In this document: positions 1 to 60,585 of the stretch, piece after piece
Layout of the letters: each line of letters opens with the position of its first letter
Numbering within the stretch: the stretch's first letter is position 1
NCBI GenBank assembly: GCA_041663145.1
Contig: JBAZRG010000002.1
Coordinates: 22,384 to 86,383, forward strand
Length of the DNA stretch: 64,000 nucleotides
Source: Minisyncoccota bacterium
GTDB lineage: Bacteria; Patescibacteriota; Minisyncoccia; Phycocordibacterales; PALSA-1337
Reading direction: 5' to 3'
Made by a program: the position numbers and the translations under genes
Notes under the pieces: model-generated
The model's input: the letters and a program-made list of their open reading frames with translations, nothing else
Database searches by the model: none
What the model was told of the DNA's origin: nothing

Positions 1-270
1 TGTTGCACTACTGAATTTATTACTTTCAAGTCAAACATATATTTAGTTGTTATTGATTTTTTATTAAGTTGTGACTATATCTATTGTATCTCATGGTCAA
101 TATATCATCTAGATATAATATATCATGCGATACCCTCTAAACTAAAATGTCCGCCGGTAGGCGAACTTCTCTAGACATGATGTAGTATACACTATTTTTT
201 GCGTTTGTAAAGTATCTAGCTATTCACCAAGCTCAATAAGTCCAATACCTTTGAATCATTACGTGGTGTG

Positions 271-300
271 TTGACAAGTAGCTATTATGTGCTGTATAAT
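271..300 (+). promoter_or_regulatory. sigma70-like promoter for the DGR target gene: TTGACA (271-276), 18-nt spacer, TATAAT (295-300)
   Basis: Perfect consensus -35 and -10 hexamers read directly in the sequence, about 135 nt upstream of the likely ATG at 437. Confidence 0.5.
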
Positions 301-436
301 TATTAAGGTAGTTCTTTGATATGCCAGTTACGTTCACCATAACAGAAAGCGTCTCAAAACTGAGGCATTTTCCGTTGTGGTGAACTGTAGTAACCACACA
401 TCAACAAAACAACGTATACGAAAGGTAATAACGATT

Positions 437-1123
437 ATGAAATCGATTACACCTGGTCAGATGGAACAGTTTGCTCGTTTTGTGACAGATGCTTCCGGTC
501 CAAGCACGAAGACGGCTCTTGAGCAGCTTCGCGACGACTGGGAATTCAGTCATGAAGGTCTTCAGCGCGCGCTCGGAAAAGGTAATCAGCTCAAATCCCG
601 CCTTATTCCGCTTCTCAAGGCCATGATCAAGGAAATGGCGACTAATATCCAAGGATGCGTGAAGCGCATCCTTGATGGAGAAGAGATCGCCATCGCCAAA
701 ACGAGCGGAAAGGAAAATCTCGCCCATGCCAAGGACGTTTTCACCGGTTGGGTTGATCCCGACTTCGTGAATTACGGCTGTGATGTGGAAGGGGAGCCTA
801 CCGCTCCGACACCTGTAGAGGTGTTCGAGATGGTGGAAAACGGCGACTTCGCGCGGATATTCGGTGGTTTCAATGTCAGCCTCGATCAGCTGCGTCTTTC
901 ACAGCACCAGATCAAGGCTTTCGCAAGGGATCACCGTGATAAGCTCCGCACGGAAGGATACGGGACCTTCTTCCTGTTCAAGGTTGGCGAAGAGTTCTTC
1001 GTTGCGTACGTGCACTTCTACGGCGGCGGGCGGCTCCGGGTCTACGTGCACCGCTTCTCGGACGTCAACGTCTGGGGCGCCGAGCGCCGTCATCGCGTCG
1101 TGCTCCCGAAACTGAACCAGTAG
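437..1123 (+). CDS. DGR target protein; the C-terminal about 40 aa are encoded by the variable repeat
   Basis: ORF 377..1123; the likely true start is the ATG at 437 (MKSITPGQ), which has an upstream AAGG. The gene is GC-richer than its surroundings. Its 3' 119 bp is an adenine-mismatch copy of the downstream template repeat. The fold is not recognisable from sequence; DGR targets are usually C-type-lectin-like. Confidence 0.7.
   Translation: MKSITPGQMEQFARFVTDASGPSTKTALEQLRDDWEFSHEGLQRALGKGNQLKSRLIPLLKAMIKEMATNIQGCVKRILDGEEIAIAKTSGKENLAHAKDVFTGWVDPDFVNYGCDVEGEPTAPTPVEVFEMVENGDFARIFGGFNVSLDQLRLSQHQIKAFARDHRDKLRTEGYGTFFLFKVGEEFFVAYVHFYGGGRLRVYVHRFSDVNVWGAERRHRVVLPKLNQ
996..1114 (+). repeat. 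DGR variable repeat (VR)
   Basis: 119 nt aligned without gaps to 1482-1600. There are 18 mismatches, every one at a position where the TR has A (VR has T, C or G). There are no mismatches at TR C, G or T positions. Confidence 0.9.
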
Positions 1124-1481
1124 GTTCACCTACTGGGTGGCACTTGCAAATTAGCCTTGAGCCTTTGGCTCTCAGTCCCTCTGATCCTTGTCAAAATTTA
1201 TTTTGGCAAATCAGGGGGATTTTTTGATTGAGCACAATCACCTACTGGGTTATACTGGAATGGCACGCATGAACGTACGGTGGCTATGGCTCCTGTGCCA
1301 CGCTTGTGAAGAAATACGTTCGGGAGTTCTGCTGGATATGTCTTGCAGAAGAGTGGATGTATTATTATCTAAACAAAAAATAATCAGTTGGTGTAGCGAA
1401 CTGGAGGACTTCAAGGTCCCGAATACTATTCAATTTGTCCTGATTGGGCGGGTGGTGTACTGGATGGTCCGCTACACATTA

Positions 1482-1600
1482 TCTTCGTTGCGAACGTGAA
1501 CTTCAACGACGACGGGCAGCTCAAGGTCAACGTGAACCGCTTCTCGAACGACAACGTCTGGAACGCCGAGAACCGTCATCGCATCGTGATCCCGAAACTG
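1482..1600 (+). repeat. DGR template repeat (TR)
   Basis: Invariant partner of the VR. Read in the VR frame it is rich in AAC codons (aac ttc aac gac gac ... aac gtg aac ... aac gac aac ... aac gcc gag aac), the classic DGR design that allows diversification without stop codons. The six-frame ORF 1496..1765 is this TR read in frame and is not a gene. Confidence 0.9.
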
Positions 1601-1615
1601 CAATTTCTCTCATCA

Positions 1616-1984
1616 TTATTTGGTGAGAGTTTTGTTGAGTGTCGATTTAGCAGACGGACTTTGAAGGCCTTTGCGCCATCCACCAAGCATCCGTCCTATT
1701 TCTTCGAGCTTTTCCGAGAGTTCTGTATATTTGTCAGTCGGCATGAGCTTGCTCTCCCATGCTAGTTGATAAAAGAATTTAAGAGTATCTACCTTCGTTA
1801 TTGTTCGACCAAGCATTACCGTTTTGGTTTCTGGTGGTAGATATATGCAAGAAAAACTAAATTCCAAAGTATCTAAGAATAAATCCTCGATCTTTTGCCC
1901 GATGCCGAGTCGTTCGACCCTCGGAAAGTTCCTATGAATAGTTAACCAAAACTGATATGCTTCTTTTTCCTTTAAAATTACCAC
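1616..1984 (-). CDS. avd: DGR accessory variability determinant (Avd), a four-helix-bundle protein
   Basis: 122 aa. The C-terminal ...LSEKLEEIGRMLGGWRKGLQ matches the Avd-type EVGRILGSWI ending, and the N-terminal EAYQFWLTIHRNFPRVERLG matches the Avd/23S-IVS-protein helix 1. It lies between the TR and the RT, but on the opposite strand. Confidence 0.7.
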   Translation of the reverse strand: MVILKEKEAYQFWLTIHRNFPRVERLGIGQKIEDLFLDTLEFSFSCIYLPPETKTVMLGRTITKVDTLKFFYQLAWESKLMPTDKYTELSEKLEEIGRMLGGWRKGLQSPSAKSTLNKTLTK

Positions 1985-2024
1985 TGGAGAATTGCGGGGG
2001 GGGGGTCGTTATAGTCATTTTATT

Positions 2025-3021
2025 TATGAAAAATAATGGGGTTTCGTACAACCATATCATATCTCTTAAAAATATCCACGAAGCGTGGCGCGAATTTGTC
2101 TCGGGCAAAAAATACAAAAAAGATGTCGCTGAATTTCTGCTCAGACTTTCGGAGAATACATATAAACTCCACACTGATCTGAAAAATAAAATATATGTTC
2201 ATGGACCGTACGAAGCGTTTGCTGTTAATGATCCAAAACCGCGCAGCATCCATAAAGCAAGCGTGCGGGACCGCTTACTCCACCACGCCCTCTATCGACA
2301 ACTCTACCCGTACTTTGATCAGAAGTTTATTCATGATTCCTATTCTTGCCGTGATTTTAAGGGAACACATCGGGCATTGGACCGTTTTATGCAATTTGCC
2401 CGCAAGGTTTCGAAGAGCAATAAACGCACCTGCTGGGTGTTGAAATGTGACATACGCAAATTCTTTGCTTCAGTTGACCATTCAGTCCTCATGGCAATAC
2501 TTAAAAAGCATGTCTCTGATTCTGATATTATCCGCCTTGTTGGTGGGGTAGTGGAGAGTTTTAAAAGTACTGGTCCAGGAAAGGGATTGCCGCTCGGTAA
2601 TCTCACGTCACAACTCCTTGTAAATGTTTATATGAATGAGTTTGACCAATATGTAAAGCATGTCCTCAAACAGGAGTTCTATATCCGTTACGCTGATGAT
2701 TTTGTGATTATGCATCACGATCGCAAGGCTTTGCTCGAGGTATTGCCGAAGATTGAAACCTTTCTTGAATCAATTCTTAAACTACAGCTTCATCCTGATA
2801 AGGTTTCTATCGAGACAGTTTCATCCGGTGTTGATTTTCTTGGTTGGGTGCATTTTCCGACTCATCGTGTACTTAGGACAAAGACAAAGAAGAGAATGTT
2901 TACAAGAATTGAAGATTCACAAGGAAAGGAAGAAGTAGTATGTTCATATCTCGGTATGTTAAAGCATGGGAATTGCAAAAAATTGAAGTGCAGGGTCATG
3001 AAATTGACAATCACAATCTAA
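2025..3021 (+). CDS. DGR reverse transcriptase
   Basis: RT motifs are present: RSIHKASVRDRLLHHAL (motifs 1-2), the DGR-specific GLPLGNLTSQLLVNVYMNEFD (motif 4 I/LGNxxSQ), and YADD in YIRYADDFVIMH (motif 5). The size of about 330 aa is typical of a DGR RT. The start is taken at ATG 2025 (MKNNGVSYNHI...); the six-frame ORF extends upstream to 1957. Confidence 0.9.
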
Positions 3022-3030
3022 TTTATCGTA

Positions 3031-3185
3031 GGAGCTTGGTGAATATTGTGTATTTGCTCCTCGCAATGCGATTTGAACCCCGAACAAATTGCCCATATTA
3101 GAGTAGCTCCGTCTACTCTAATATGGTTGCAATTTGGAGTGGGTGACCTTGCGAGGAGCAAATACACAATATTCACCAAGCTCCT
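3031..3185. repeat. Element A copy 1: a 36-bp outer inverted repeat enclosing a conserved ~85-nt core with an internal 14-bp hairpin
   Basis: The arm 3031-3066 (ggagcttggtgaatattgtgtatttgctcctcgcaa) is the reverse complement of 3150-3185. The core tgcgatttgaaccccgaacaaattgcccatattagagtagctccgtctactctaatatggttgcaatttggagtgggtgacc is nearly identical to the core at 44100-44190. Confidence 0.7.
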
Positions 3186-3237
3186 GTAGACTCTATGCAC
3201 AGTGACTCGCGCTTGAATTAGCGATACAATTGACTCA

Positions 3238-4986
3238 ATGTTCGTCGAAGATGCCCAGCTCTATAAATTCATACTCGACTCCGGATTGGTGACAAAGGAG
3301 GAGCTTGAGGATGCAAAAAAAGAGAGTGAAAAAACTAATAAAAGACTTGGCGATATTTTGGTTAGTGCCGGCAAGATAAATGCCGACAATCTACGTCGCA
3401 TGCAAGCATATGTTCTCGGTATTCCTTTTGTCGATCTGAAAAACAAAAAGATCCCTTTTGAAACTCTGTCACAAATACCGGAACCGATCGCGAGAGGGCA
3501 CAATATCGTGGCTTTCAAAAAGACCGAGGTTTCTCTCGAGGTCGCCATGCTCGACGTCAACGATCTTTCGGCTATCGATTTTATAAAGAAAAAAGTAAAT
3601 CTCAAGATATTACCTCGTCTCACAGATACTGATTCGATCAAGGAGGTTCTCGTTCAATACCAAAAAAGCTTGAAGGCCGAGTTCGGAGATATCATCCAAA
3701 AAGAAACCGCGACGATGAATATGATCTCGGAAGAAAGCGGTGAAGCTATATCCGAAGCTGATTTGAAAAAGATCGCCGAAGATCTGCCGGTAGTTCGCAT
3801 TGTCGATACCTTGATTAAACATGCAATATTGCAAAATGCTTCAGATATCCATATAGAGCCGATGGAGGAACAGGTATTGGTGAGATATCGCATAGACGGC
3901 TTGTTGCACGATGCCATGGTCCTTCCAAAACAGGCAGGTCCTTCGGTCACTGCCCGTATAAAGGTCTTGTCGAATTTGAAACTTGATGAAAAACGTTTGC
4001 CACAAGACGGTCGTTTCAAAGTAGATATAAATAATGAGAAAGTTTCTTTTCGTGTATCGATATTGCCGACTTATTACGGGGAAAAGACCGTTATGCGTCT
4101 GTTACGAGAGAGCATTTCTGGTTTTACTCTAGAATATCTGACATTTCACGGTGAGAGTCTCGAACGTATTCACAAAGCACTTACAAAATCCACAGGCATG
4201 ATCCTCACAACCGGTCCTACTGGATCCGGAAAGACGACGACTCTATATACGATGCTCGACATATTGAACACTCCTGATGTAAATATTTCGACTATTGAAG
4301 ATCCTATCGAATATCAGATGGCTAGAATAAATCAGACTCAGGTCAAACCAGAGATCGGTTTCTCTTTTGCTCAAGGCATACGCACACTCGTTCGTCAGGA
4401 TCCGGATATTATCATGGTTGGTGAGATCCGAGACAATGAAACAGCCGCTTTGGCGGTGAATGCCGCTTTGACTGGCCACTTGGTTTTGTCGACACTCCAC
4501 ACAAATTCCGCCGCCGGTGCTATACCACGACTTTTGGATATGAAAGTAGAATCATTTTTGCTCGTATCTATACTAGACATCGTGATCGGTCAGCGACTGG
4601 TGCGCAGACTGACTGAAGCCAAATCACAATACAAATTGACCAAGGATGAACTGGCTGAGCTAGGTCGTCTGGTGGATTTGGAACGAGTCCTTGAAACTTT
4701 GAAGGCTGAAAAAATAGTAAAACCTAGCGATTCGTGGGAGAAGATATCTTTTTGGAAACCTGTACCGGGTGGAGATGATGATGGGTTCAAGGGTCGCATC
4801 GGTATTCACGAAGTATTGAAGATGACTCCTTCCATGAAGGATCTCATAATGAAAGATGCTAGTTCGGACGGTCTAGAAGCACAAGCTAGAAAAGAGGGAA
4901 TGTTGACCATGTTAGAAGATGGGATATTCAAATGCGTTCAAGGTTTGACGACTATTGAGGAAGTTCTTCGAGTTATTTCGGAATAA
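3238..4986 (+). CDS. pilB: Type IV pilus assembly / type II secretion ATPase (PilB/GspE family)
   Basis: 582 aa with Walker A GPTGSGKTTTLY. The GspE-family N-terminal domain and the C-terminal Zn-finger region are consistent with this family. Confidence 0.85.
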   Translation: MFVEDAQLYKFILDSGLVTKEELEDAKKESEKTNKRLGDILVSAGKINADNLRRMQAYVLGIPFVDLKNKKIPFETLSQIPEPIARGHNIVAFKKTEVSLEVAMLDVNDLSAIDFIKKKVNLKILPRLTDTDSIKEVLVQYQKSLKAEFGDIIQKETATMNMISEESGEAISEADLKKIAEDLPVVRIVDTLIKHAILQNASDIHIEPMEEQVLVRYRIDGLLHDAMVLPKQAGPSVTARIKVLSNLKLDEKRLPQDGRFKVDINNEKVSFRVSILPTYYGEKTVMRLLRESISGFTLEYLTFHGESLERIHKALTKSTGMILTTGPTGSGKTTTLYTMLDILNTPDVNISTIEDPIEYQMARINQTQVKPEIGFSFAQGIRTLVRQDPDIIMVGEIRDNETAALAVNAALTGHLVLSTLHTNSAAGAIPRLLDMKVESFLLVSILDIVIGQRLVRRLTEAKSQYKLTKDELAELGRLVDLERVLETLKAEKIVKPSDSWEKISFWKPVPGGDDDGFKGRIGIHEVLKMTPSMKDLIMKDASSDGLEAQARKEGMLTMLEDGIFKCVQGLTTIEEVLRVISE

Positions 4987-5020
4987 TATTTTTCTTTTTA
5001 AATAATCATTACACAACGTC

Positions 5021-6241
5021 ATGCCTCATTTCACTTTCAAAGCAAAAAGACCTTCGGGCGAGATTTATAGCTCGGAAAAAGACGTGAATGATCGATACGA
5101 ACTGTATAAATTGCTTCGTGAGACCGGTGATGAAGTCGTTGAATTTAAAGAAAAGAAATCAAGAGGGGGTATAAATATGGAAATATCATTGGGACGTATT
5201 ACGGACCATGTCAAAACTATTGAAAAGATAAACTTTGCCCGCAATCTAGGCTCGATGTTGCAGGCCGGACTTTCGCTATCCCGTGCTTTGCAGGTCTTGG
5301 AGCGACAGACTCGAAACAAAAAATTCAAAAAAATCTTGGCTCAATTGATCGACGAGATCGATAAAGGTACAACATTTTCTGACGCTTTAGCTAAACATCC
5401 ACGAGTATTTCCTCAATTATTCGTCTCTATGGTCAATTCGGGAGAACAATCTGGCACATTATCCGAATCACTCAGAGTTGTCGCAACTCAAATGGACAGC
5501 AGTTATTCACTAGAGAAGCGTGTCCGTGGTGCACTCATGTATCCGGCGGTCATTGTGACGGCTATGGTTGGCATTGCGATTTTGATGTTCATATTCGTAG
5601 TACCGACTTTGATGAAGACATTTACGGATCTCAATGTTGAATTGCCGTTTGCGACACGTCTGGTGCTCGGTATATCAAATATAATTCAAAATCAAGGTTT
5701 TTTGGTTCTGATCATAATACTTATTATCACATCCGGATTGTACTGGTGGACGCGAAAATCAACAGGTCAAAAAATATTGCACCGTATTTTGTTGAAGTTA
5801 CCGGTGATAGGCGAACTTGTTCAAGAGGTTAATACTGCCAGAACCGCTCGCACCATGTCATCACTGCTAACTTCTGGTGTCGATGTTGTAGAATCGGTAA
5901 CAATAACATCGGCTGTCGTCCAAAATGTTCATTTTCGAAGAGTATTGGTTGAAGTTGCTGAATCTATAAAGAAAGGTGAATCGATGTCCAAGGTTTTTTC
6001 GGAAAATATCAATCTTTACCCCGTATTCTTCTCTGAAATGATAAATGTTGGAGAAGAGACTGGAAAAACAGGGGAGATGCTCTTGGGAGTGGCACATTAT
6101 TACGAAGATGATGTATCCCAAAGAACCAAAGACATGTCTACCATCATTGAACCGATACTGATATTAATGATCGGAGCGGCTGTAGGAGTGTTCGCTCTGT
6201 CGATGATTCAGCCAATGTATTCATTGGTAAATGTTATCTGA
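5021..6241 (+). CDS. pilC: Type IV pilus inner-membrane platform protein (PilC/GspF family)
   Basis: 406 aa polytopic membrane protein with duplicated GspF-type domains. It lies directly downstream of pilB. Confidence 0.8.
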   Translation: MPHFTFKAKRPSGEIYSSEKDVNDRYELYKLLRETGDEVVEFKEKKSRGGINMEISLGRITDHVKTIEKINFARNLGSMLQAGLSLSRALQVLERQTRNKKFKKILAQLIDEIDKGTTFSDALAKHPRVFPQLFVSMVNSGEQSGTLSESLRVVATQMDSSYSLEKRVRGALMYPAVIVTAMVGIAILMFIFVVPTLMKTFTDLNVELPFATRLVLGISNIIQNQGFLVLIIILIITSGLYWWTRKSTGQKILHRILLKLPVIGELVQEVNTARTARTMSSLLTSGVDVVESVTITSAVVQNVHFRRVLVEVAESIKKGESMSKVFSENINLYPVFFSEMINVGEETGKTGEMLLGVAHYYEDDVSQRTKDMSTIIEPILILMIGAAVGVFALSMIQPMYSLVNVI

Positions 6242-8019
6242 TGGAATCCAATACAATGCATCCAAAAAAATCCAACGGTTTTTCTCTGGTGGAAGTTCTG
6301 GTGGGAACAGCTATTTTCCTGATAGTTGCAATATCAGCATATGGGATCTTTGCCAATGTTTTTCGCTTGGCTAATGGCAATCAGGCCAGAATGTTGGCTA
6401 TACAGTTGGCAGATGAACAATTTGAGATCGTTAGAAACATGCCATATCTATCAGTTGGTTTGACCAACGGTATTCCGCTCGGAATTTTGCCACAAAATCA
6501 GACTCTAGTACGCGGTAACGTGACATTTGATGTCGGCATGACTATTCGTAATGTCAATTTCTCCACGACAAGCTATCAGGCCAGTAGTAAATTGGTTGAA
6601 ATCACCGTAACATGCTCAACATGTCAAAATTTCAATCCGGTTACTTTAACAGGGCAAATATCTCCAGCAAATCTTCAATCAGCTGGAGATGGGGGGGCGA
6701 TAGTGGTTCAGGTTTTTGATGCCAATGGTCAGCCAGTCGTCGGTGCCGAGGTGGTTATTCAAAGTGTATCTACATCCACCATTACAAATACAGATGTTAC
6801 GAATAATAACGGTATTCTAAATGTTATCGGAGTGCCACCTGGAAATAATGCTTATAGAATAACTGTAAGCAAAGCTGGTTATTCGACGGAGCGAACATAT
6901 TCGATCGGAGGTGCAGGCAATCCAAACCCGATAAAACCGGATGCGACGGTGCTCAATCAACAGGTTACGCAAGTCAGTTTTGCAATAGATAAATTGAGCA
7001 CATTACATTTTTCCAGTGTCGGACCATTATGCAACGTTATTCCAAACGTGGAGTTTAATCTGTCTGGCGCAAAGCAAATCGGTGCGGATATTCCCAAATA
7101 TTCAGAAGCTTTGTCAACTGATACAAATGGCACATTGACTTTGAATTCCATGGAATGGGATACATATACACTTTTACCGACTGAAGCATCATATGATATT
7201 TACGGTATCAATCCTATTAGTCCATTTGCTCTAAATCCTGACAATATACAGGAAGTTCAATTGGTCGGTATTCCTTCCTCAGGTAATAGTCTCATGGTTA
7301 CGGTCGTAGACAGTGCCCTTCAATTGCCTATATCTGGAGTCGAAGTAAATCTTTCAAAAACTGGATATGATGTTACAAAGATCACTGGTCAAGGTTATAT
7401 GAATCAGACTGATTGGTCAGCTGGAAGTGGGCAGATCTTATTTACTGATCCGACCAAATATTATTCTGATAATGGTCTAGTCGATACGTCAACATCGACT
7501 GGAGATATATTGTTGGATCAGGCTTTTGGTCTATATAATATAAATTCCACAGGCACACTAGAATCTTCCACTTTTGATACAGGTACGACAAGTAATTTTT
7601 ATACATTTTCTTGGAATCCTTCCAGTCAGCCATCTTTAGCTGGAGTGGAAAGCGTGAAATTCCAATTTGCTTCAAATGACACATCGACTTCTACTAGTTG
7701 GGACTATAAAGGTCCAGATGGTACATCGAGCTCATTCTTTACCGTACCGGGTTCATCTATAAATAATAATCAGAACGGTAAACAATTCGTCAGATACAAA
7801 GCTTATTTATCGACTGAGGTGGCAACAGTGACGCCAATGGTCTCTGATGTATCGTTTGCATATACTTCTGGTTGTATACCACCTGGACAGGTATTATTCC
7901 AGAATCTTTCTGGTACATATACTTTGACTGTCGAAAAAGCTGGATATATCACAGTGAGTGGCAGTATAGATATCGGTTCTGATTGGCAACAAAAAAAGGT
8001 TTTACTTGAATTACAATGA
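6241..8019 (+). CDS. Large pilin/pseudopilin-like protein with a prepilin-type N-terminal cleavage/methylation signal
   Basis: The N-terminus ...KSNGFSLVEVLVGTAIFLIV fits G|F-S-L-V-E with Glu at +5. It has a long Ser/Thr/Asn-rich extracellular region and is translationally coupled to pilC. Confidence 0.7.
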   Translation: MESNTMHPKKSNGFSLVEVLVGTAIFLIVAISAYGIFANVFRLANGNQARMLAIQLADEQFEIVRNMPYLSVGLTNGIPLGILPQNQTLVRGNVTFDVGMTIRNVNFSTTSYQASSKLVEITVTCSTCQNFNPVTLTGQISPANLQSAGDGGAIVVQVFDANGQPVVGAEVVIQSVSTSTITNTDVTNNNGILNVIGVPPGNNAYRITVSKAGYSTERTYSIGGAGNPNPIKPDATVLNQQVTQVSFAIDKLSTLHFSSVGPLCNVIPNVEFNLSGAKQIGADIPKYSEALSTDTNGTLTLNSMEWDTYTLLPTEASYDIYGINPISPFALNPDNIQEVQLVGIPSSGNSLMVTVVDSALQLPISGVEVNLSKTGYDVTKITGQGYMNQTDWSAGSGQILFTDPTKYYSDNGLVDTSTSTGDILLDQAFGLYNINSTGTLESSTFDTGTTSNFYTFSWNPSSQPSLAGVESVKFQFASNDTSTSTSWDYKGPDGTSSSFFTVPGSSINNNQNGKQFVRYKAYLSTEVATVTPMVSDVSFAYTSGCIPPGQVLFQNLSGTYTLTVEKAGYITVSGSIDIGSDWQQKKVLLELQ

Positions 8020-44007: not shown

Positions 44008-44068
44008 AGTGTTACGTAAAATCTTCATATTCACGTCCATGACTACTTTTGTAAAATTTCAGCTCCTC

Positions 44069-44220
44069 GAGCTCGGTGAATATTGTTCGGAAACGACTCG
44101 CAATGCGATTTGAACCCCGAACAAATTGCCCATATCTGAGTAGTTCCATCTACTCAAATATGGATGCAATTTGGAGTGGGTGACCTTGCGTGTCGTTTCC
44201 GAACAATGTTCACCGAGCTC
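44069..44220. repeat. Element A copy 2 (outer 35-bp inverted repeat plus conserved core)
   Basis: gagctcggtgaatattgttcggaaacgactcgcaa (44069-44103) is the reverse complement of 44186-44220. The core at 44104-44185 matches the 3067-3149 core at most positions. The variable stem segment differs from copy 1 but stays self-complementary. Confidence 0.75.
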
Positions 44221-44297
44221 TTTCTTTTCTTGACTTCAAAGTGTGGCTCTGTTAACATGCAACGACTGCTCCGCGGAGCTGTTTTAGTTAATCTTAC

Positions 44298-60195: not shown

Positions 60196-60557
60196 GGGGA
60201 TGATCGGCATAGACAGTCTATGGTCTCCGTTCGTGCGGCGTGAGCACCGTTAACTCATAAATCTGACGGAAACTCTAAATGCTAAATCAACCGTTTCTCC
60301 GTATTTCGGAGCAAAGGACTTTAGTTTCGCTCTTGCTTAAAGAGCGCGTTCACCTCAGGGTATCCTAACCTGAGAATGGGCGTCATTATCTGGATGTAGG
60401 GCAGTGAAGTTTCTCGCTTCATTGTCTGAAATCATGAGATCGTGAATACGTGTTTTGTCTTCTTTCGAGCGTATTCATTAAACTTCAAAGAATTCTACCG
60501 CCGTAGAATCGTTCGGTTGATCTTGATTGCACCTGGGTTCGATTCCCAGCATCTCCA
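60196..60557 (+). ncRNA. ssrA: tmRNA (SsrA); the 3' CCA is not encoded
   Basis: The 5' GGGGAUGAUCGGCAUAGAC pairs with the 3' CAUCUCC plus the discriminator A. The T-arm is CUGGGUUCGAUUCCCAG (60531-60549). The internal tag reading frame is ...GCA AAG GAC TTT AGT TTC GCT CTT GCT TAA, giving ...AKDFSFALA*. It is adjacent to smpB. Confidence 0.8.
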
Positions 60558-60585
60558 CAAAAATAAGAAGCGTAGCGACTATATT

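Follow-up and report, generated by a model that had tools for sequence, protein, structure and literature searches.

To our knowledge, all that is known about how DGR reverse transcription works has come from the Bordetella phage element, in which RNA located 3' of the TR is essential. CPR bacteria are among the largest reservoirs of DGRs, which account for ~80% of CPR RTs. The primary work on the CPR elements is reportedly that of Paul et al. 2017, and CPR DGRs are grouped with Architecture B3. The latter belongs to the classification of 372 DGR cassettes by Wu et al. 2018 (PMC5758913), where it is written TR-(avd)-RT, the parentheses marking the reverse strand, and where it makes up 90% of the CPR DGRs of the set; where parts lie on both strands, a cassette requires two transcription units or more, as pointed out in the same study. 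The 'DGR clade 2' of Roux et al. 2021 is grouped with Architecture B3 of CPR bacteria as the closest known system to the locus described here.

The BPP-1 DGR has the order mtd-avd-TR-Sp-brt, and its RNA has been described in Handa et al. 2018 and in bioRxiv 10.1101/2023.10.23.563531. The BPP-1 RNA 3' of the TR is essential, a stem-loop right after the TR binds Avd, and putative stem-loops occur just downstream of the TR in 207 of the 278 DGRs that contain Avd (Handa et al., bioRxiv 10.1101/2023.10.23.563531). Here we describe a DGR found in a 64-kb stretch of DNA (the window, meaning the whole stretch that was analysed), for which a preliminary description had called unusual an avd gene lying antisense between TR and RT.

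RESULTS

A complete DGR with the layout of Architecture B3

The window carries a complete DGR at 437..3021, within its first 3 kb. Its parts and the signals that accompany them are as follows:

271..300, + strand: predicted promoter-like site 5' of the target gene (TTGACA-18-TATAAT, 12/12 consensus match)
437..1123, + strand: DGR target gene, 228 aa, of a hypothetical protein family of Paceibacterota
996..1114, + strand: VR, 119 nt, at the 3' end of the target ORF (last 40 codons), 85% identical to the TR
1117..1136, + strand: hairpin of 8 bp with a 4-nt loop (-13.5 kcal/mol), which starts 3 nt past the VR/TR homology and overlaps the target stop codon
1177..1225, + strand: terminator-like long hairpin (1177..1218) and T-run (1220..1225), -25.2 kcal/mol, z -4.8, 0/200 shuffles
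1482..1600, + strand: TR, 119 nt
1616..1984, - strand: avd (accessory variability determinant), 122 aa, GTG start, recognised with Pfam, NCBIfam and an HMM of the relatives
2026..3021, + strand: DGR reverse transcriptase (RT), 331 aa, RVT_1 E=1.9e-26

The two repeats align without gaps over 119 nt at an offset of 486, and their 18 mismatches all fall at TR adenines (18/18, with 0 at non-A positions). Since every mismatch is an adenine in the downstream copy, the downstream copy is the TR and the upstream copy the VR. The mutated adenines are 18 of the 31 present in the TR, which holds 9 in-frame AAC codons, and in the target ORF every change falls at a first or second codon position. Adenine mutagenesis follows the canonical profile: the proportion of TR adenines that differ in the VR is 57% across the TR body and drops to 14% over the final 10-15 nt preceding the hairpin, and this low-mutation, A-poor 3' end fits an IMH*-like end at which cDNA synthesis would begin. 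The target protein is small, bears the VR at its C-terminus and has no recognisable domain; it is the single adjacent target, located upstream on the same strand. The hairpin that follows the VR has the position of the IMH-flanking hairpin/cruciform of known DGRs, and in 38 of 52 relatives the 48 nt after the VR reach a folding energy of -8 kcal/mol or better. Further downstream, the terminator-like hairpin and T-run are predicted to end the target-gene transcript.

By its TR/VR pair, its adjacent RT and a 3' VR with an inverted repeat, the locus is a member of the DGR family. No second avd, RT or VR was found elsewhere in the 64-kb window. The same strain is represented by a second, independent assembly (L086), which matches the window at 100% identity over 3059 nt, and its VR is 100% identical to that of the window, the comparison being one between consensus assemblies; the VRs are likewise identical among five assemblies of one relative. 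The RT motif LPLGNLTSQ is invariant among the relatives, TR/VR pairs accompany the RT in every relative with sufficient flank, and the RT itself is 100% identical to a protein from a Candidatus Paceibacterota MAG. The public gene call for the RT begins at the ATG at 1957, giving 354 aa.

The locus was compared with its 80 closest loci, obtained from a scan of one genome per species, whose RTs are 57-69% identical and which essentially all belong to Patescibacteria/CPR MAGs. All 72 loci with enough upstream sequence have a minus-strand Avd homolog immediately upstream of the RT, and in 51 of these 72 we also found a TR on the + strand whose mismatches to a + strand VR further upstream are adenine-specific, the TR end being separated from the avd 3' end by a median of 19 nt. 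The order of parts that the preliminary description had given, TR on the plus strand, avd on the minus strand and RT on the plus strand, holds with all its coordinates, whereas its view that the layout is unusual does not: this is Architecture B3, that of 90% of the CPR set (PMC5758913) and of 72/72 relatives. The comparison of synteny with CPR DGR loci, which had been suggested as a check, shows a normal layout and not a departure from it, with the minus-strand avd beside the RT in every one of the 72 relatives that retain the flank. In this lineage an antisense avd is the rule; it is no oddity and no artefact. We regard it as virtually certain that the locus is a CPR DGR of type B3. It shares with Architecture B3 (Wu et al. 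2018) the order and orientation of TR, avd and RT, a CPR host and an upstream target with a C-terminal VR, and nothing in its layout differs. The flagged arrangement is a known one, here in a MAG locus that is public but unannotated. The leader RNA, the hairpin and U-tract after the TR and the poly-G tract described below are not among the B3 descriptions that we found.

avd is a real gene encoded on the minus strand

The avd ORF is separated by 15 nt from the end of the TR and by 41 nt from the start of the RT. It matches Pfam PF22296 bAvd with 43 bits (cutoff 40) over profile positions 10-106 of 107, and NCBIfam NF033474 'DGR protein Avd' with E=4.5e-16 over positions 4-104 of 104; an HMM made from the relatives finds it at E=1.5e-48 as the sole Avd of the 64-kb window. 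The Avd call is thus upheld by full-length bAvd and DGR-Avd matches, together with the strands and the order of the parts, and the finding that the preliminary description had said would overturn it, namely no Avd homology here and a plus-strand avd elsewhere, is not what the profiles and the window give. In 52 relatives, third-position entropy showed that codon positions 1 and 2 of avd are conserved along 1664..1984 and that position 3 is at or near saturation; this is a coding type of conservation, and avd is therefore a real gene. The same measure in the 52 loci revealed no synonymous-site constraint along 1664..1984 of the kind that an RNA element overlapping avd would leave, which argues against a hidden spacer RNA inside avd. 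The expectation that a TR-spacer-RT layout of the BPP-1 type would not apply here was well founded, with 15 nt between TR and avd and no synonymous constraint in avd.

We identified no promoter or RBS for avd at the locus. Gene callers often miss or shorten this gene, with a call of 66 aa in L086 and no call in another related locus (L081). Translational phase variation of avd through the C-run was also considered and rejected: the first ATG found upstream shares the avd frame in 14 loci and does not in 43, which is chance level, and the Avd profiles are already covered in full from the GTG at 1984.

A conserved structure, the probable leader of the TR RNA, precedes the TR

The stretch between VR and TR measures 258-408 nt in the relatives, and the VR-to-TR spacing is fairly constant (373-532 nt). 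In the window and its relatives this stretch and the sequence just 3' of the TR contain the following features:

1228..1256, + strand: promoter-like site of the TR RNA, with a -10 box TATACT at 1251..1256
1263..1481, + strand: structured leader of the TR RNA, ~220 nt, supported by covariation, with a predicted start at 1263 placed from the -10 box
1276-1285/1288-1297, + strand: leader helix P1
1327-1337/1340-1350, + strand: leader helix P2
1372-1387, + strand: A-rich strand of the leader
1388-1391, + strand: invariant UUGG of the leader
1391-1402/1466-1477, + strand: leader helix P3, 12 bp, which begins at UUGG and encloses P4 and P5
1406-1409/1416-1419, + strand: leader helix P4
1433-1435/1451-1453, + strand: leader helix P5
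1601..1606, + strand: short strand between TR and hairpin, a pairing partner, along with the final TR bases, of the A-rich leader strand
1607..1636, + strand: terminator-like 9-bp hairpin (1607-1615/1621-1629) followed by UUUUGUU, z -4.6

The two intervals in which the preliminary description had advised looking for promoters, 1240-1480 and 1985-2024, do hold -10-like boxes, TATACT (1251..1256) in the former and TATAGT (2010..2015) in the latter, but the -35 is weak at the first and none was identified at the second. The TATACT box of the window has no TG extension and reaches, with its weak -35, an overall consensus match of 9/12. In the relatives a TAnnnT box, often TGnTAnAAT, is kept 29-35 nt upstream of the P1 apex, and a GC stem and T-run directly precede this -10 box.

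RNAalifold on the leader gave 38 pairs in five helices, 33 of them with compensatory double changes. Standard pairs occupied 96.6% of the cells, against 69.4% in column shuffles and 37-54% when the partners were slid by 1-3 columns; double-change cells numbered 583 versus 163 in shuffles, and 0 of 500 shuffles reached any observed measure. P1 and P2 have similar apical loops of the YAYG type, each with a wobble pair as its closing pair, and P3 closes 5-10 nt before the TR, enclosing two smaller helices and several invariant unpaired stretches. G.U pairs are frequent in the leader and assign the structure to the + strand. The model CM R1, which represents the 3' domain of the leader, gave 69 hits in 602 kb, all on the RT strand (+) and essentially one per DGR, including at least 16 loci outside the seed alignment; exactly one hit falls in the window (1366..1483, 86.4 bits). 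When 1263..1640 of the window was folded as a single sequence, the result was not better than shuffles (z -0.75), and the structural support therefore comes from covariation only.

Rfam searches over 1..3400 gave only spurious miRNA-hairpin matches to 3028..3188, where the sequence forms a palindrome, and over the whole window they gave only a tmRNA. We found no description of this leader RNA family in Rfam or in the DGR literature, a comparison that left Paul et al. 2017 aside, and the family may be previously undescribed.

A hairpin with a U-tract follows the TR

The hairpin located 6 nt past the TR overlaps the end of avd, whose stop codon lies in the loop and whose last codons make up the 3' arm. 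Of 52 relatives, 50 have a hairpin of this kind, running from CUC to GAG, with UUUU(G)UUUU after it. Its first 8 bp are paired in 95.9% of cases, compared with 73.0 +/- 1.7% when the 3' arms are shuffled among loci, and the inner stem sequences vary widely among loci yet stay complementary, with U.G pairs that are possible on the + strand only. The U-tract after the stem has a median of 8 T in 9 nt in the relatives, a conservation that is confounded with that of the avd C-terminal codons. With a GC-containing stem and a U-run, the element has the form of an intrinsic terminator and is predicted to be one; on the minus strand the sequence that follows the hairpin is A-rich, and it would therefore be a terminator for the + strand only. 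By analogy with BPP-1, the hairpin could instead be an Avd-binding stem-loop only, the RNA running on past it. A terminator role and an Avd-binding role are compatible.

Complementarity and covariation link the A-rich leader strand, immediately 5' of UUGG, to the short strand that separates the terminal hairpin from the TR end. The leader::post-TR pairs are AAAUGAAGA::UCUUCAUUU in the main group, AACGAAGA::UCUUCGUU in L014, AACAG::CUGUU in L080, AAAUCA::UGAUUU in L054 and AAAAUAAAGU::ACUUUAUUUU in L060. Cognate duplexes have a mean of -5.18 kcal/mol versus -3.21 +/- 0.25 kcal/mol for permuted ones, and 0 of 1000 permutations were as low. The register varies between subfamilies, and in the window the duplex is imperfect and its exact register uncertain. 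With the post-TR strand pairing back to the A-rich leader strand, the TR would become a closed loop. A primer:template duplex between UUGG and the TR 3' end was considered as well; there are suggestive pairings, CAGUU::AACUG in the window and AGUC::GACU in L054, but the register is inconsistent in the main subfamily and we make no such claim.

A simple-sequence tract lies between avd and RT

Two further features occupy the intergenic region from which avd and RT diverge:

1996..2005, + strand: G10 homopolymer in the divergent avd/RT intergenic region
2010..2015, + strand: putative -10-like hexamer TATAGT for the RT, from sequence inspection, with the ATG 10 nt downstream

A G6-14 tract occupies the avd/RT position in 61 of 74 relatives, and the others have (GA)n, (TG)n, (CTGG)n or (CTGATTG)n there. 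Elsewhere, G/C runs of at least 8 are rare, with only 5 others in 539 kb. In many relatives the G-run is followed by TAnnnT, 7 nt and the ATG of the RT, which suggests that the RT mRNA is nearly leaderless, with little or no 5' UTR. No polymorphism in G-run length was seen among near-clonal consensus assemblies, the run being G9 in five assemblies that carry the RT P0022 and G10 in the window and L086.

Phase-variable promoters with simple-sequence repeats include those with poly-G in Neisseria porA and with TA repeats in Haemophilus hifA/hifB. The locus resembles them in that a control region contains a homopolymer or short tandem repeat immediately upstream of a -10 box, and in the swapping of one repeat type for others at a single position across lineages. 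It differs from them in that the G10 locus shows no length polymorphism in the few near-clonal assemblies and no -35 element was identified there, and its role is putative. The simple-sequence tract, whether poly-G or another repeat, might make expression of the mutator switchable, a reading that we hold to be unlikely on present evidence. The avd/RT repeat tract may itself be previously undescribed.

DISCUSSION

Our results show that a DGR whose antisense avd had drawn attention is of the ordinary kind for its lineage; the parts that may be new are the leader RNA family and the avd/RT repeat tract. The anatomy of the locus, the conservation and covariation of its elements, their strand and their specificity are what the analysis shows.

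How would a template be made when avd lies antisense next to it? We propose that the locus is expressed as four separate transcription units, corresponding to the target gene, the TR RNA, avd and the RT. The target gene would have a strong consensus promoter and its own terminator. The template would be a discrete + strand RNA of ~375 nt (~1263..1636), starting at a promoter of the extended -10 type right after the target-gene terminator and comprising, in this order, the ~220-nt leader, the TR, the short strand that pairs back, and the hairpin and U-tract placed over the avd 3' end. The sequence elements of such a unit recur in some 50 to 70 related loci. The avd gene would be expressed from the opposite strand, and the RT from its own -10-like box just downstream of the conserved poly-G tract. 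The 5' leader and the 3' hairpin would together provide a scaffold for protein binding and priming, in place of the BPP-1 3' spacer. Having its own promoter and terminator, the template RNA would not need to cross avd, and with a scaffold that lies mainly 5' of the TR, avd could sit antisense without being crossed. The preliminary description had reasoned that only two routes are open to the TR RNA, read-through of antisense avd or a separate promoter; this reasoning is sound, and a separate promoter and terminator for the TR RNA is the likely answer. The transcript ends, the termination, the binding of RT and Avd and the priming site are predictions of the model, which as a whole, a B3 DGR with four units and a separate TR RNA, we consider probable. 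We attach a similar, rather high confidence to one part of it, namely that the TR RNA is a separate structured transcript. Whether the leader functionally replaces the 3' spacer is for us an evenly balanced question. Slightly below this we place the more general idea that CPR (B3) DGRs may use a permuted template RNA, self-contained, with its own promoter and terminator, a 5' leader scaffold and a terminal hairpin.

The comparison with BPP-1 illustrates this proposal. Both elements have an adenine-specific transfer from TR to VR, a pair of Avd and RT, a hairpin after the VR, an A-poor and unmutated TR 3' end, and a stem-loop a few nt after the TR; in the window it is the hairpin at 1607..1629 that takes the position of the BPP-1 Avd-binding stem-loop. 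Both also have a duplex that closes the TR, although with a different geometry, the upstream strand lying ~95 nt before the TR in the window and ~10 nt before it in BPP-1. In contrast to BPP-1, avd in the window is antisense and downstream of the TR, the 140-nt spacer between TR and RT is missing, with only 15 nt from TR to avd, and the Rfam RT-10 motif is absent (no match at E<=1 in 1..3400). The large conserved structure (~220 nt) lies 5' of the TR, and the RNA of the window appears to end at the U-tract.

A different possibility is that one long + strand transcript begins upstream of the TR, crosses the hairpin, which would then only bind Avd, and avd, and carries the RT, with a spacer RNA antisense within avd. 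What is known of BPP-1 speaks for it, since there the RNA 3' of the TR is essential and the stem-loop right after the TR binds Avd. The occurrence of putative stem-loops just downstream of the TR in 207/278 Avd-containing DGRs (Handa et al.) also speaks for it, and intrinsic terminators can leak. Nevertheless, we think it improbable, because the third codon positions of avd are saturated throughout 1664..1984, where such a spacer would have to be, all the conserved structure is 5' of the TR, and no Rfam RT-associated motif was found in 1..3400; moreover, a conserved U-tract follows the hairpin in 50 of 52 loci, and a -10-like box of its own precedes the RT ATG at a fixed distance. The idea that the minus-strand ORF is spurious, or its orientation an assembly artefact hiding a co-directional layout, could draw on the frequency with which gene callers miss or truncate avd (66 aa in L086, uncalled in L081), but it can be set aside almost completely: the ORF matches the bAvd and DGR-Avd profiles over their full length and shows a coding pattern of conservation in the avd frame, the orientation is the same in 72/72 independent MAG loci, the independent assembly L086 is 100% identical over 3059 nt, and there is no other Avd in the window that could be the co-directional one.

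It could also be argued that the leader is not part of the template RNA, and that it serves the target gene as a 3' UTR or regulatory element, or else is recognised at the DNA level during retrohoming. Its location between the target gene and the TR and the fairly constant VR-to-TR spacing (373-532 nt) would agree with this. On the other hand, a terminator-like hairpin and T-run and a -10 box part the leader from the target gene, P3 closes only 5-10 nt before the TR, and covariation joins the leader's A-rich strand to the one 3' of the TR; as for a DNA element, the frequent G.U pairs and the compensatory changes indicate RNA. We regard this explanation as still less probable than a transcript reading through avd, and the separate TR RNA that includes the leader as the preferred reading.

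What does this mean for the DGRs of CPR bacteria? The layout that was flagged adds nothing new by itself, being the textbook CPR arrangement, but it leaves no room for a spacer of the BPP-1 type. The ~375-nt RNA, made of leader, TR and hairpin, is a concrete construct for the in vitro reconstitution of a CPR DGR and for mapping of its priming site, and CM R1 can annotate the TRs of CPR bacteria, including those whose VR is far away or has decayed. The repeat tract conserved between avd and RT, in turn, poses a testable question: is hypermutation in these bacteria under the control of a hypermutable switch?

Genomic setting of the cassette

The DGR cassette (437..3021) is followed by ORFs which, by their translations, look like the ATPase and platform protein of a type IV pilus or type II secretion system; a tmRNA gene lies much further along the same contig.

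3238..8019, ORFs resembling an ATPase and a platform protein of type IV pilus / type II secretion systems
60196..60560, tmRNA gene

In the assemblies of a relative carrying the reverse transcriptase P0022 (L081-L085), the cassette is found within the conserved secY-adk-map gene row, a placement that echoes the interleaving of some CPR DGRs with ribosomal-protein-operon genes (Wu et al., PMC5758913). The avd gene of these assemblies had been missed entirely by the gene callers.

Repeated elements around and inside the cassette

The 3' side of the cassette carries a hairpin element of ~160 nt, of which a second copy is present in the window. Three copies of one short sequence and two of another also lie around or within the cassette.

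3028..3188, hairpin element, copy 1, starting 9 nt past the RT stop
about 44065..44222, hairpin element, copy 2
221..234 and 3170..3183, exact 14-nt direct repeat TATTCACCAAGCTC, with an inverted copy at 3032..3045
1126..1138 and 1238..1250, exact 13-nt repeat TCACCTACTGGGT

Copy 1 of the hairpin element has outer arms of 37 nt that pair without a mismatch. The stem sequences differ between the two copies, yet complementarity is kept, and both share a conserved core, GCGATTTGAACCCCGAACAAATTGCCCATAT... No copy was found in other DGR loci, and the element is absent from Rfam, where the only matches were spurious ones to miRNAs. It may be a structured RNA particular to this genome, or else a repeat of the MITE type.

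The direct repeat TATTCACCAAGCTC brackets the whole cassette, and its right copy forms the outer arm of the hairpin element. When up to 2 mismatches were allowed, 6 matches were obtained in the window versus 0.5 expected. This repeat may lie at the boundary of an insertion or recombination event, or may be what is left of a third hairpin element. As for TCACCTACTGGGT, the copy at 1126..1138 makes up the 3' arm of the VR-flanking hairpin, and the copy at 1238..1250 is located immediately upstream of the -10 box of the proposed TR RNA, a place at which a T-run is all that most relatives show; the two occurrences may be due to chance.

The region between avd and RT

If the RT started at ATG 1957 (354 aa), as in public gene calls, it would share 28 nt with avd. 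When relatives are aligned, they favour ATG 2026 (331 aa) as the start.

1996..2005, G10 run between avd and RT, at a position conserved in CPR DGR loci

A run of 6–14 G, mostly 8–12, occupies this position in 61 of 74 CPR DGR loci and is directly followed by a -10-like TAnnnT. In loci devoid of poly-G, this position is taken by (GA)n, (TG)n, (CTGG)n or (CTGATTG)n. Elsewhere in the 539 kb of loci only 5 G/C runs of 8 or more were present. The G-run is not a coding tract in frame, and no polymorphism in its length was seen among the few clonal assemblies compared. We propose the G10 run as a candidate hypermutable switch for the expression of RT and avd.
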